NCBI GenBank assembly: GCA_038065095.1
Contig: JBBTRR010000001.1
Span: forward strand, 29,652-93,651
DNA from: Patescibacteria group bacterium
GTDB lineage: Bacteria > Patescibacteriota > Minisyncoccia > JACQLN01
Length of the DNA stretch: 64,000 nucleotides
Direction of reading: 5' to 3'
In this document: positions 60,537-64,000 of the stretch, one piece after another
Layout: each line of letters starts with the position of its first letter
Position numbering within the stretch: the stretch's first letter is position 1
Position numbers and translations under genes: made by a program
The notes under the pieces: generated by a model
Seen by the model: the letters and a program-made list of their open reading frames with translations, nothing else
What the model was told of the DNA's origin: nothing
Databases searched by the model: none

Positions 60537-61451
60537 ATGGCTTTAGGCAGAGGTTTGGAATCATTGATTCCACAAAAAAGGAACGAAGAAGTTTCTTCTC
60601 CAAAAGAACAAACTAGCTTTTCTGTTCCAGCAAAGAATGTTGCCACAACCGCAAGGCAAGAGAGTGTTTTTTATATTGAAATAGAAAAAATAAAACCAAA
60701 CCCTTATCAGCCTAGAAAAGAGTTTAACGAAGCCGAGCTTAATAGTTTGGCCGATTCCATGAAGCAGTACGGCATGCTTCAACCTCTTTTGGCTTCTAAG
60801 ATTGAGTTTGCTGTTTCCAGTGGAACCAAAGTTGAATACCAGTTAATAGCTGGTGAACGCCGTTTAAAAGCCGCGGGTATTGCGGGGCTTCGCCAAGTTC
60901 CGGTAATAATAAAAAATCCAGACAATGCTACAAAATTGGAAATAGCTTTAATAGAAAACGTCCAGCGCCAAAATCTAAATGCCATAGAAGAAGCTTTGGC
61001 TTATGAACGTTTAATGACTGAATTTAAATTAACCCAAATGGAGGTGGCTCAAAAAGTTGGCAAGAGCCGCGAGGTAGTTGCCAACAGGGTTCGTCTTTTA
61101 GATTTACCATACGAAGTTCAACGAAGTATTTCCGACGGAAAAATAAGCGAAGGTCATGCGAAGGTTTTGTTGGCTATTAAAAATTCCGAACGCCAAATAT
61201 TTTTAACTGACGAAATAATTAAAAAAACTTTATCGGTCCGCGAACTAGAAGATATTGTTCGTACCGACGAATCTTACAGGGCAAAAACAACAAAGGTAAG
61301 TGATCCGGAACTAGAAAACTATAAAAAAACAATTCAAGATACTTTGGGTACACCTGTTTCTTTTTCGGGTAACCGCGAAAAAGGTAAACTGGCTATCAGT
61401 TTTTATTCTCAAGAGGATTTAGATAGAGTAATTAAGCGTTTGACAATGTAG
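60537..61451 (+). CDS. parB: ParB/Spo0J partitioning protein
   Basis: LGRGLESLI, GERRLKAAGIAGL, HTH region. Confidence 0.85.
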   Translation: MALGRGLESLIPQKRNEEVSSPKEQTSFSVPAKNVATTARQESVFYIEIEKIKPNPYQPRKEFNEAELNSLADSMKQYGMLQPLLASKIEFAVSSGTKVEYQLIAGERRLKAAGIAGLRQVPVIIKNPDNATKLEIALIENVQRQNLNAIEEALAYERLMTEFKLTQMEVAQKVGKSREVVANRVRLLDLPYEVQRSISDGKISEGHAKVLLAIKNSERQIFLTDEIIKKTLSVRELEDIVRTDESYRAKTTKVSDPELENYKKTIQDTLGTPVSFSGNREKGKLAISFYSQEDLDRVIKRLTM

Positions 61452-61532
61452 GTATATTCTGATACAATATATCTAAGCTCAAATAGAGCCTAAATAGTAC
61501 CTCAAAAACCTTAATCGCAGGAGAAACTGGCT

Positions 61533-62366
61533 ATGGCTAAAAGCCCGGTCGGTAGTATGTCGGACTGGTCCGGCGTGCTCAAAGATTTTTTCCGTCAGGT
61601 TGACGATGGCAGTATCACGCTGGAGATGGTGAAGGCCTTCGTCGAACATCGGGTTGTGTCTGCTCTCGAAACTCTGCTGGAGACCACAAAAAAGAAACTC
61701 CAGAAGTTTTTCCGTGTAGACCTTGAACCCATGCCTGCTGAATTCACCGAAGAGAACTTGGCCAAGTGGGCCGAGTTCAACTTGAAGCCTGTCTATCTGC
61801 CGATGGAAGAAATCGGTGAAGACCGCAAACTGAAAAATTGGACCAAGCCCGAAAAATGGTTTTATCAGAAAATCGGAGAAGGCAAAGTTAACGCGGACAG
61901 TGCCAAGCTTCACCAAGGCTGGTATCTGGCCGATTTCACAGTCGGCACAGATTACACCGACGGCACGCAGGTGTTTCCGAACGACCCTCTCAATCCAATC
62001 ATCAAAAGATTGCGCGAAGAAGGGAAAATCGGAAAGTACGATAATACTCCGCTCGGTTCTCGCTTTGCCATTACCCACGACGAATGGCAGACAGTAGTTT
62101 GTCCTGCTGTGGCCGAATCACTTGGTTTCAAACCTACACAGGTTCGCTTGGAGCGATCCATTGAATTTAACGCGATCGGGAATATCTACGATCCCAATCG
62201 TGGCAGGTTCAATATGTGGGAGTGGTTCAGTGATAAATTTGAGGACTCCTACCAGCTTTGCAGTGGTCGCCGCGGGAGCGGTGGTCTGGCCCACGTCTTC
62301 TACAGTTGGTCTAGTCATCGCCTCGTCGACATAGCTGGTCGTCCTCTGGTGAGTTTCGTGAGTTAG
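61533..62366 (+). CDS. DGR target (variable) protein, C-terminal VR
   Basis: GC-rich ORF with GCAGGAGAAACTGGCT-ATG RBS. Its C-terminal ~40 codons align to the downstream TR, with differences concentrated at TR adenines. Confidence 0.65.
   Translation: MAKSPVGSMSDWSGVLKDFFRQVDDGSITLEMVKAFVEHRVVSALETLLETTKKKLQKFFRVDLEPMPAEFTEENLAKWAEFNLKPVYLPMEEIGEDRKLKNWTKPEKWFYQKIGEGKVNADSAKLHQGWYLADFTVGTDYTDGTQVFPNDPLNPIIKRLREEGKIGKYDNTPLGSRFAITHDEWQTVVCPAVAESLGFKPTQVRLERSIEFNAIGNIYDPNRGRFNMWEWFSDKFEDSYQLCSGRRGSGGLAHVFYSWSSHRLVDIAGRPLVSFVS
62235..62352 (+). other. DGR variable region (VR)
   Basis: Aligns to TR 62661-62778 with a constant offset of 426 nt. The 3' homology block CGTCCTCTGGT(G)AGTTTC is identical (IMH-like). 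Confidence 0.6.
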
Positions 62367-62384
62367 GTTCTTTTCCCCTTGGGC

Positions 62385-62412
62385 TTTGGCTCTTGGGATT
62401 TTCCCCCAACGC
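62385..62412 (+). other. GC-rich hairpin downstream of VR
   Basis: TTCCCCCAAC-GCAA-GTTGGGGGAT (8-bp GC stem, 4-nt loop) ~35 nt past the VR end, followed by a T-run. Confidence 0.6.
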
Positions 62413-62660
62413 AAGTTGGGGGATTTTTTTATTTTCACAAACTTGATAGAATTTTTCTTGAGTAAGCTAATGAAGAATAGATCAAGGTTTATTCTCGCAT
62501 TTACTCTCCTGTTTAAAACAGGAAATAACGAAACTCCTTGCTTTGGGCTAGATCGGGTGTCCTAAATTTGTGGGATTGCCGAGTAAAAAACTATCCGTGG
62601 GATGCGGATTTCAGAAAATATAGATTTATATTTTCGGTGATTATAGACGGCTTAAAGCAA

Positions 62661-62778
62661 AAATTCGAGGATTCCAACCAGCTTTACGGCGGTAACCGCG
62701 ATAACGATGGCTTGGCCAACGTCAACTACAACTGGTCTAGCAATCGCAACGACAATATAGCTGGCCGTCCTCTGGTAG
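62661..62778 (+). repeat. DGR template repeat (TR)
   Basis: Adenine-rich (many AAC codons in the VR frame). Homologous to the VR. Intergenic. Followed by hairpin AAGAGCACCT-TATTTTTT-AGGTGCTCTT at 62790-62818. Confidence 0.6.
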
Positions 62779-62825
62779 TTTCCAAACAAAAGAGCACCTT
62801 ATTTTTTAGGTGCTCTTTGTAAAAT

Positions 62826-63143
62826 TTAGTTTGATCTTATCCAGCCACCTAACATTCTGCCTATTTCCAAAACTTTTTCTTCAGCTATTAAATATTTTTT
62901 TATATTGATTGATTTGGTATCGTGAGCAAGGCGGACAAGATATTTTAACAAGTCAGTTTTATCGCTAGCCTTTCTTAAAGTTTCATCTTTTTGATGTTTG
63001 GGTTGGTAACTTGCTGAAAGTATTAATTCTAAAACCTCTAAAATAGTATTTTCAATTTTATTTCCCAGAGTAAAACGTTCCAGCTTTGGAAATGTTTTTA
63101 AACACTCGTGAAATAATTTATATAACTCACAAATCTTATGCAC
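62826..63143 (-). CDS. avd: Avd-like four-helix-bundle accessory protein (GTG start)
   Basis: FPKLERFTLGNKIENTILEVLELILSAS ... LKYLVRLAHD ... EIGRMLGGWI matches the four-helix-bundle/Avd family. Divergent from the RT. Confidence 0.65.
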   Translation of the reverse strand: MHKICELYKLFHECLKTFPKLERFTLGNKIENTILEVLELILSASYQPKHQKDETLRKASDKTDLLKYLVRLAHDTKSINIKKYLIAEEKVLEIGRMLGGWIRSN

Positions 63144-63162
63144 AATTGGTATTTCAACTCCG

Positions 63163-64000
63163 TTGGGGGGGGGCTTTAATGGTAAAGTTTTCCATAATAT
63201 TTTTGAAAAGATTATTGGCTTAGAAAACTTATTTTTAGCTTGGCGCGAATTTAAGCGTGGTAAGAAAAAGCGTTTAGATGTTCAAGAATTTGAGTTTAAC
63301 CTAGAAGATAATTTGTTTCAATTGCGTAACGAACTAAAGAATAAAATCTACCAACACAATAAATACATTCCTTTTTATGTAACCGACCCAAAGTTAAGAC
63401 ATATACATAAGGCTACAGTTCGGGATAGAGTTTTACATCAAGCCGTGTTTAGAGTTCTTTACCCAATCTTTGATAAAAATTTTATATTTGATTCTTATTC
63501 TTGCCGAATAAACAAAGGCACGCATAGAGCAATTACCAGATTAGAAAGTTTTTGCCATAAATTAAGCCAAAACAACAGTAAAACTATTTTCGCCTTAAAG
63601 TGTGATATTAAAAAGTTCTTTGATTCTATAGATCAAAATATTCTAGCTAGTTTGATACAAGCAAAAGTTAAAGACGATAATGCTACGTGGCTTGTAGACG
63701 TGATTATCAAAAGCTTCCCCAAAGGTTTACCCTTGGGCAATGTAACCAGTCAATTGTTTGCCAATATTTATCTTAACGAACTAGACCAATTTATTAAACA
63801 TAAATTAAAAGAAAAGTACTACATTCGTTATTGTGATGATTTTATTATTTTGGGTGAGAACCTGAACGTCTTGCAGAGATTATCAAAAAAGATAGATGAG
63901 TTTTTGGGAAAGAGTTTAAAGCTATCCTTGCATCCCAATAAAATTATCATGCGTAAATATATACAGGGCATAGATTTTCTGGGTTATGTGATTTTGCCGA
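63163..64000 (+). CDS. DGR-type reverse transcriptase, 3'-truncated by window edge (start codon uncertain)
   Basis: LPLGNVTSQLFANIYLNELD (DGR hallmark IGxxxSQ in place of the group II QGxxSP). YIRYCDDFIILG (YxDD). RT motifs 1-5 in order. Confidence 0.8.
   Translation, partial: MGGGFNGKVFHNIFEKIIGLENLFLAWREFKRGKKKRLDVQEFEFNLEDNLFQLRNELKNKIYQHNKYIPFYVTDPKLRHIHKATVRDRVLHQAVFRVLYPIFDKNFIFDSYSCRINKGTHRAITRLESFCHKLSQNNSKTIFALKCDIKKFFDSIDQNILASLIQAKVKDDNATWLVDVIIKSFPKGLPLGNVTSQLFANIYLNELDQFIKHKLKEKYYIRYCDDFIILGENLNVLQRLSKKIDEFLGKSLKLSLHPNKIIMRKYIQGIDFLGYVILP
63165..63173 (+). repeat. G9 homopolymeric tract at the RT 5' end
   Basis: CCGTTGGGGGGGGGCTTT. Separates an out-of-frame ATG (63138) from the RT reading frame. 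Confidence 0.8.

Follow-up and report, generated by a model that had tools for sequence, protein, structure and literature searches.

A diversity-generating retroelement (DGR) was analysed in a 64,000-nt stretch of the Patescibacteria contig JBBTRR010000001.1 (GCA_038065095.1), here called the window, whose positions serve as coordinates throughout. The element is a chromosomal DGR with the B3 layout typical of the candidate phyla radiation (CPR), in a groundwater Patescibacteria genome. Taken as a whole, it is likely to be a recombination patchwork, in which the variable repeat (VR) of the target gene and the template repeat (TR) next to it are of different ancestry and in which homing would be primed from the leader of the TR RNA. 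The cassette is ordered as promoter, target gene with C-terminal VR, terminator hairpin, structured leader of ~200 nt, TR, stem-loop, convergent avd on the minus strand and divergent reverse transcriptase (RT) gene, and all its protein and repeat components were found intact. The same arrangement, with target, TR and RT on the plus strand and avd on the minus strand, was found in all eleven complete or near-complete relatives (L012, L015, L020, L022, L034, L038 and L044-L048; such labels denote related loci or cassettes, L033 being the syntenic cassette of a sister strain). The exact target protein was present on 20 contigs, all from Hainich groundwater metagenomes, and the cassette was 100% identical in eight of the ten source contigs fetched. 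The core call of an earlier reading made without database searches (hereafter the sequence-only reading), namely a DGR composed of target and VR, hairpin, TR, Avd and DGR-type RT, was borne out. It had also described the position of avd on the opposite strand as unusual, which proved to be the CPR norm: the order TR-(avd)-RT is architecture B3 and makes up "90% of the CPR set" (Wu et al. 2018, PMC5758913).

The VR (62235-62350, plus strand) and the TR (62661-62776, plus strand) matched without gaps over 116 nt, at an offset of 426 nt and with 77% identity, so that the gap-free repeat previously described at the end of the target open reading frame (ORF) was recovered with a core slightly shorter than the 118 nt given for it. 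A total of 27 mismatches were found between the VR and the adjacent TR, 16 at TR adenines and 11 at other positions (non-A), while extension to 118 nt gave 29 mismatches, 17 at A and 12 non-A; the earlier hand count had been about 16 of some 26. The TR contains 32 adenines, with nine AAC or AAT codons in the VR frame, and the A bias that had been proposed for a programmatic check was evident, as half of the A positions (16 of 32) but only 11 of the 84 others differed (Fisher p=7e-5). Moreover, every one of the 16 A-site mismatches fell at codon positions 1 or 2 of the target frame, and nine of the 11 non-A mismatches at codon position 3. The repeat is not a chance one, because the VR matched the TR at 73 of the 84 non-A positions and the next-best match anywhere in the window and 20 kb of flanking sequence reached 38. 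No second VR or TR was found on either strand of the window and the 20-kb extended contig, where the background was 33-38 of the 84 non-A positions. Both repeats end in the GC-rich block CGTCCTCTGGT (62340-62350 in the VR and 62766-62776 in the TR), after which G and AGTTTC follow in the VR and AGTTTC alone in the TR. The shared 3' block reported earlier, resembling an initiation of mutagenic homing (IMH) site, is therefore present, with a 1-nt indel between CGTCCTCTGGT and AGTTTC in the VR. In the VR, the IMH-like end (62340-62359, plus strand) consists of CGTCCTCTGGT followed by GAGTTTCGT, and in the TR the IMH*-like flank AGTTTC occupies 62777-62782 (plus strand).

Identity of VR and TR at non-A positions, which is expected after homing, was not found in the window cassette but was observed in six sister cassettes, with RTs 56-85% identical, none of which had non-A mismatches inside the repeat. 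In particular, the mismatches at TR adenines were 13 of 13 in L012 and likewise in L033, 17 of 17 in L020, 15 of 15 in L022, eight of eight in L034 and 17 of 19 in L015, where both exceptions lay at the ragged 5' edge. The non-A differences of the window were polarised with L033 and L034 as outgroups. Ten of the 11 were found to be derived in the window TR, the VR base being that of the VRs and TRs of both outgroups, and all ten TR-derived changes were silent in the VR frame. Accordingly, comparison of the window VR with the L033 TR gave 17 mismatches, 16 of them at A (p=5e-10). With respect to that same TR, the window TR carried 12 private substitutions, all within 62666-62765, of which ten were at codon position 3 (binomial p=5e-4 for at least ten of 12), one was a silent change at the first position of a Leu codon and one was a G-to-A change creating a new adenine; no adenine or AAY codon had been lost. 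We infer that the non-A mismatches stem from recombination that paired a VR and a TR of different ancestry, and that the TR changed under a codon-level constraint, which would act only through homing. Regarding the roughly ten non-A mismatches from which the sequence-only reading had suggested a drifted or partly inactive cassette, their number stood (11), but not that interpretation, since in ten of them it is the TR that has changed, without altering the encoded residue in the VR frame.

The recombination was also apparent from the comparison of the window with the sister strain along the chromosome. Both were 99.9-100% identical from 58200 to ~61250 (0-1 mismatches per 100 nt up to 61200), while divergence started abruptly inside parB (~61250) and continued in patches to ~65000, with 3-27 mismatches per 100 nt, so that the left part of the mosaic block occupies 61250-64000 and the rest lies past the window. 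Within the block, divergence was ~7% in 61450-61950 and ~25% in 61950-62205 (~54% of third positions). The VR with its IMH (62206-62361) showed A-site differences only, plus one other; there were 12 differences in the TR body (62666-62765) and none in 62766-62940, and the 5' part of avd and the RT diverged by 15-20%. In the target protein, identity to the sister strain dropped from 99% over residues 61-139 to 79% over residues 140-224, and the latter segment was closer to other lineages (85%). The L033-like patch of the target gene (62206-62361) ends at the end of the IMH, and its flanks differ at ~54% of third positions. Overall, third-position divergence from the sister strain was 26% for the TR, 20-29% for target, avd and RT, and 5% for the VR, whereas between L033 and L034 the TR was nearly frozen (5%) while the genes differed by 31-42%.

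Exchange of cassette parts was seen in further relatives. In L038 (1-480) and L037, an RT 82% identical to that of the window, also with a tract of nine G (G9), lies alongside an unrelated TR and target family; therefore, the RT-Avd and TR-target modules recombine. A second highly divergent island was found past the window, at the equivalent of 65500-68300 (L002 vs. L039), covering an intergenic region and topA in strains otherwise identical, and imports of divergent DNA are thus not confined to the DGR. Furthermore, in L021 (470-1600) an insertion bounded by the inverted repeats TTAAACACTCGGTGTCTAAC and GTTAGACACCGAGTGTCTAAC stands in place of the TR, avd and most of the RT; what is left of the cassette is the VR, now an orphan, with its terminator hairpin and the final ~54 RT codons.

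Under the favoured explanation, recombination between cassette alleles would have put a VR last written from an L033-type TR beside a TR of other ancestry, the imported TR would have evolved under selection as a functional template, and no retrohoming from it would have reached fixation since the recombination. Because the VR fits the TR allele of the sister strain and the cassette lies in a mosaic block, the adjacent TR does not appear ever to have rewritten the present VR, and the element looks competent but silent or rarely firing in this clone. A different origin of the non-A mismatches would be low-fidelity or noncanonical mutagenesis by the RT or at cDNA integration, with the VR copied from the adjacent TR. 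RT infidelity was offered by Wu et al. to explain the non-A-to-N differences of CPR DGRs, where multiple such differences are frequent (maximum 11 in one target). An origin of this kind is very improbable here, as at ten of the 11 sites the VR base is that of the L033 and L034 VRs and TRs while the TR base is private, silent third-position changes are not expected of random misincorporation, and the six sister cassettes lack non-A mismatches inside the repeat. Another account is that of a dead or decaying DGR, whose TR has drifted neutrally after the loss of homing. It would accommodate the 11 non-A mismatches, the invariant VR and an RT with only a TTG start, no obvious Shine-Dalgarno (SD) sequence and a slip-prone G9 tract, and cassettes of the same family can die, as L021 illustrates with its TR, Avd and most of its RT lost to an insertion. 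However, neutral drift would hit all codon positions and not third positions in ten of 12 cases, adenines and AAY codons were all retained, and the changes are confined to the TR body, with 175 nt downstream free of any. Besides, the RT, Avd, leader helices and primer-IMH complementarity are intact, and the flanking core genome, 99.9-100% identical to the sister strain, implies that little time has elapsed, all of which makes decay unlikely. Since the TR changes are derived and ten of the 12 are at position 3, both RT infidelity and neutral TR decay are poor explanations. The VR was identical in 20 contigs, which are consensus-level assemblies, and no VR variant was found in the 90% protein cluster; however, the sister-strain VR was likewise identical between replicate assemblies, so that invariance at this level says little about activity.

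It could also be supposed that the VR is serviced in trans by a second, L033-type TR located elsewhere, with the adjacent TR serving another target or none. Remote targets do exist in the family, as the VR of L019, 52 kb from the L022 cassette, shares the IMH flank of L022, and the L034 genome has two DGRs within 7 kb. This arrangement is nevertheless improbable for the window, as no other VR or TR copy was found in its 64 kb or in the 10 kb downstream, the adjacent cassette is the syntenic equivalent of the only visible cassette of the sister strain, and no VR with the window-type markers was present in the collections searched. Lastly, a chance repeat beside a group II intron-like or retron-like RT, that is, no DGR at all, can be given next to no weight. 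The best NCBIfam model of the RT is indeed a group II RT/maturase (TIGR04416, 141.8 bits), but this score is far under the cutoff of 300 and the best relative in the Protein Data Bank (PDB) is the Bordetella phage bRT. Moreover, Avd is an equivalog match, the repeat is A-biased with AAY codons, eleven relatives have the whole arrangement, and a permissive Rfam scan of 62300-63250, a region lying 5' of most of the RT, gave no match to a group II intron model.

Between the terminator hairpin and the TR, a segment of ~200 nt (62460-62658, plus strand) was identified as a putative non-coding leader of the TR RNA. It is conserved in seven cassettes, even though their proteins share only 45-65% identity, and its secondary structure was supported by RNAalifold and strongly by covariation. 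Its helices were H1 (62460-67/62497-506), H2 (62472-82/62487-96), H4 (62540-49/62649-58), H5 (62553-66/62572-82), H6 (62593-98/62604-09) and H7 (62614-22/62627-35). A total of 22 of 64 pairs were compensatory, compared to 9.9+/-2.1 in shuffled alignments (none of 500 reached 22) and to 5-9 when partners were slid, and 97.7% of the helix cells were paired, against 32-49% with partners slid. A permissive Rfam search (62300-63250, E<=10) returned no RT-n motif, including RT-10 (the BPP-1 spacer), and nothing above the gathering score, with only weak matches of small-RNA type. On the other side of the TR, only ~45 nt remain before the avd stop, with one covarying stem-loop (62786-62820; core stem 62790-99/62808-17; z=-6.5 on the plus strand and -5.2 on the minus strand), for which compensatory changes were found in L034, L015 and others. 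By analogy with the Avd-binding stem-loops reported immediately 3' of the TR by Handa et al., it is a candidate Avd-binding stem-loop and/or avd terminator.

The leader contains the primer-like motif ACGAAACTCC (62528-62537, plus strand), which can pair with the 3' flanks of both repeats. In particular, 62528-62536 is complementary over 9 bp to GAGTTTCGT in the VR flank (62351-62359), and over only 6 bp to the TR flank. Part of the motif, GAAACTCC (62530-62537), could form a duplex (H3) with GG(T)AGTTTC at the 3' edge of the TR, and 2 nt past the motif begins the H4 strand (62540-62549), whose partner (62649-62658) ends 2 nt before the TR; H4 covaries in both leader families, the second of which was represented by L038 (110-300) and L045-L048. 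The pairing was compared across 12 cassettes belonging to two TR/target families, and the leader:VR duplex was longer than the leader:TR duplex in all 12, the former having 8-13 bp with an intact core and the latter 6-8 bp or a broken core. Furthermore, at leader position -1, immediately ahead of GAAACT, the base is complementary to the VR flank in 11 of the 12 cassettes, the pair being C-G, A-T, T-A or G-C, and it does not follow the TR flank. Two target families both keep AGTTTC at the end of the VR but read it in different frames, and it is therefore a nucleic-acid signal. A better pairing of the primer with the VR IMH than with the TR IMH* has been described for BPP-1 and proposed to set the directionality of homing (Naorem et al. 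2017), while a 2026 study (PMC12875486) still calls the integration step of the mechanism unknown.

Transferred to the window cassette, the BPP-1 model would run as follows, with the primer/scaffold strand 5' rather than 3' of the TR. The TR RNA would be made together with its 5' leader, ACGAAACTCC would pair with the TR 3' flank and prime cDNA synthesis in cis, and H4, abutting the TR 5' end, would stop it. The RNA-cDNA hybrid would then be directed to the VR by the better pairing of its primer there, with 9 bp in the VR flank compared to 6 bp in the TR flank. More broadly, the RNA of B3 DGRs could be circularly permuted with respect to that of BPP-1, its ~200-nt 5' leader acting as cis-primer, stop duplex and protein scaffold, and its acceptor being chosen by a primer-VR flank pairing that covaries across lineages; separately, a switch between nine and ten G (G9/G10) at the RT start may gate RT translation and give phase-variable DGR activity. 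This broader proposal is held tentatively, at somewhat less than an even chance.

Several side observations were made on leaders and acceptors in the relatives. The remote target L019 (6556-6700) lies on the same Giovannonibacteria contig as the L022 cassette (L022:6576-7111); its VR equals the L022 TR at all 12 marker positions, and its IMH flank is the same as that of L022, tandemly duplicated (GAGTTTCTAGTGAGTTTCTAG). The shared flank is compatible with recognition in trans, and also with inheritance by duplication. The second DGR of the L034 genome (L034:1-1800, minus strand), 5 kb from the first, has a divergent leader, with another stem in place of the H2 hairpin, and lacks a VR within 6 kb.

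Some observations weigh against the patchwork with leader-primed homing. The donor of the window-type TR was sought among relatives, and its marker combination was absent from the closest targets (P0003, P0004 and L021) and the closest RTs (P0122 and P0123), the cassette of P0122 having an unrelated TR. When metagenomes were searched for VRs and TRs with either set of markers, only sister-strain contigs were returned, a weak test because the window's own contigs lie outside that collection. With no donor lineage found to carry the window-type TR markers, the import is deduced and not observed. Moreover, a patch in the TR body plus another in the VR require several breakpoints, or homing at the time of recombination, and the L033-like patch already starts 29 nt ahead of the region homologous to the TR, which is easier to reconcile with gene conversion than with retrohoming as its origin. 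The invariance of the VR in the 20 contigs holds at the consensus level only, activity being judged from sequence. Regarding the priming, H3 showed no compensatory change and was invariant in the first leader family, while in the second an uncompensated T-to-C change occurred in two cassettes, and its core was mismatched in three of 12 cassettes. Since H3 is thus invariant or uncompensated, the proposed cis-pairing of the leader with the TR flank stands by analogy only, as does priming by the leader motif, which is modelled on BPP-1. In addition, the leader-VR complementarity could instead reflect an RNA-RNA helix in a read-through transcript.

The target gene (61533-62366, plus strand) encodes 277 residues, with N-terminal helices and a C-terminal domain that, on the modelling proposed earlier, models as a C-type lectin (CLec)/formylglycine-generating enzyme (FGE) fold presenting the VR. 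The family had no Pfam match, being below detection by the Pfam FGE-sulfatase model, and only 12-14% sequence identity was found with Treponema denticola TvpA and Thermus TaqVP, from which the target also differs in its N-terminal helical module and in having no evident lipoprotein or signal sequence. Its G+C content is ~50%, compared to ~35% in the genome; the targets of nine related cassettes are GC-rich throughout (44-53%, with up to 58% at third positions), whereas the RTs of the same cassettes are AT-rich (30-38%), the neighbouring genes having 37-54% G+C. The avd gene (62826-63143, minus strand, GTG start) encodes 105 residues and matched Pfam bAvd (1.2e-21) and the NCBIfam equivalog NF033474 (DivGenRetAVD), the latter with 88.2 bits for a cutoff of 80, so that an Avd-like gene on the opposite strand was indeed present.

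The RT gene (63163 to the window edge at 64000, plus strand) starts with TTG, without an obvious SD sequence. Completed past the window, it was found uninterrupted on the source contigs, with 321 residues and its end at the equivalent of 64128, and the motifs cited for a DGR-type RT were all present: LGNVTSQLFANIYL, LGNVTSQ (followed by LFAN) and YIRYCDDF, which includes YCDD. Among PDB structures, the RT fragment was closest to the bRT of Bordetella phage (8ub7, E=2e-40), with the alignment starting at bRT residue 2, and the next matches were group II intron RTs at ~1e-19 (8e-20 for the next). More than 7,800 RT homologues were found at E<=1e-40, and CPR genomes carry thousands of close relatives. 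Three homologues of 483-528 residues (P0138, P0140 and P0217) are fused to a uracil-DNA glycosylase-like domain (PF03167).

The G9 tract (63165-63173, plus strand) encodes Gly-Gly-Gly at the RT N-terminus, and its length varies between assemblies. In the window strain, eight assemblies had G9, one G10 and one, from long reads, G6, while in the sister strain three independent ones had G9 and one G10; this variation may be homopolymer assembly noise. The avd GTG lies 19 nt ahead of the RT TTG, so that in the G9 state both ORFs are separate, and the overlap of the avd start with the RT start region described before holds for the G10 variant only, where the RT ORF opens at 63092. A G9 or G10 tract at the RT start is conserved in four diverged cassettes, its positions being L033:3857, L039:4946, L034:7636 and L012:3622 besides that in the window, and was length-polymorphic within two strains. 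In the majority state of the sister strain, L034 and L012, the RT frame is closed by a TAG just before the tract, which leaves the full RT without a canonical start; the full RT is reachable only in the +1 G state, fused to an upstream ORF that is antisense to the avd 5' end. The tract may thus be a phase-variation or slippage gate on RT expression, as judged from these reading frames. As an obligatory switch in the window strain the idea is weakened, because the GGG is a conserved protein motif, found in at least 79 of 120 RT homologues, 21 of which start right at it, as the RT here does with TTG. About 20 of the gene calls among those 120 were N-terminally truncated. The ATG at 63179, after the G run, was rejected as the RT start, as it is out of frame (a 14-codon ORF), and no slippery heptamer was found.

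Among the remaining features, a promoter-like site ahead of the target gene (61440-61468, plus strand) with TTGACA, 17 nt and TACAAT, including TG, matches 11 of 12 consensus positions, and is a consensus match only. The GC hairpin with a 4-nt loop, placed by the sequence-only reading ~35 nt after the VR, was located at 62402-62423, 36 nt after the target stop codon, with a 9-bp stem, a GCAA loop, -17.8 kcal/mol and z=-4.2; together with its T-run (62402-62433, plus strand) it is also a canonical intrinsic terminator. By its sequence and position, it would both end transcription of the target gene and correspond in place to the post-IMH stem-loop of DGRs, and hairpins of differing sequence were found at the same place downstream of the VR in all the relatives. 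In the VR frame, an ORF (62538-62822, plus strand; L034:7114-7323) extends across both the TR and the stem-loop that follows it. In L033 and L034 an ATG preceded by GGTGA lies 18 nt before the TR, where a gene is called in L034, and this ORF is probably a by-product of the origin of the TR. Outside the cassette, the segment 56744-59424 encodes a 620-residue protein with a LexA DNA-binding domain, an S24 peptidase and an N6/N4 DNA methyltransferase, and, convergent with it, a restriction endonuclease of the MvaI/BcnI family; together they would form a restriction-modification system in which a self-cleaving repressor module of LexA type is built into the methylase.

As a DGR, the element is ordinary and its layout already catalogued. 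It shares with the CPR B3 DGRs the gene order and strands, the single adjacent target with a C-terminal VR, the bAvd-family Avd, the RT with [ILV]GxxxSQ and the chromosomal location in groundwater CPR. Non-A-to-N differences are frequent in that set as well (PMC5758913), and the layout shows no difference from it. However, here such differences were traced to a swap of TR alleles and not to RT infidelity, and the target, which belongs to one of the unannotated VR classes of CPR, was modelled as a CLec/FGE fold. With BPP-1 (mtd-avd-TR-Sp-brt) it has in common homologous RT (E=2e-40) and Avd proteins, A-specific VR/TR differences, a GC-rich IMH-like block with a downstream GC hairpin of 4-nt loop, and a primer strand with better complementarity to the IMH of the VR than to the IMH* of the TR. 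A two-duplex junction would also be common to both, in which a single RNA strand forms one duplex with the 3' flank of the TR and, after 2 nt, a second with a segment 5' of the TR; in BPP-1, spacer (Sp) positions 53-56 pair with TR 118-121 and Sp 59-70 with the segment upstream of the TR. In contrast to BPP-1, avd is on the opposite strand between TR and RT, the element is chromosomal and not phage-borne, and no counterpart was found of the ~140-nt structured spacer that in BPP-1 lies between TR and RT and bears the priming adenosine, the TR being followed by a single stem-loop within ~45 nt, while the ~200-nt structured RNA with its primer-like strand lies 5' of the TR and has no match to Rfam RT-10 (Sp).

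The cassette thus provides a worked example of non-A-to-N differences between VR and TR, of the kind hitherto put down to RT infidelity, that can be produced by recombination bringing together repeats of different ancestry, and such mixing bears on the scoring of DGR activity from VR/TR alignments. Moreover, the TR appears to evolve like a coding sequence, with silent changes only, though it is untranslated, which would be indirect evidence of selection acting through homing. The most interesting by-product is the leader RNA and its covariation with the VR flank, which gives comparative support to the known model in which primer-IMH pairing sets the direction of homing. Earlier published surveys of the RNA elements of DGRs covered only 40 nt upstream of the TR, and the leader described here suggests that the commonest DGR class places its RNA scaffold 5' of the TR.

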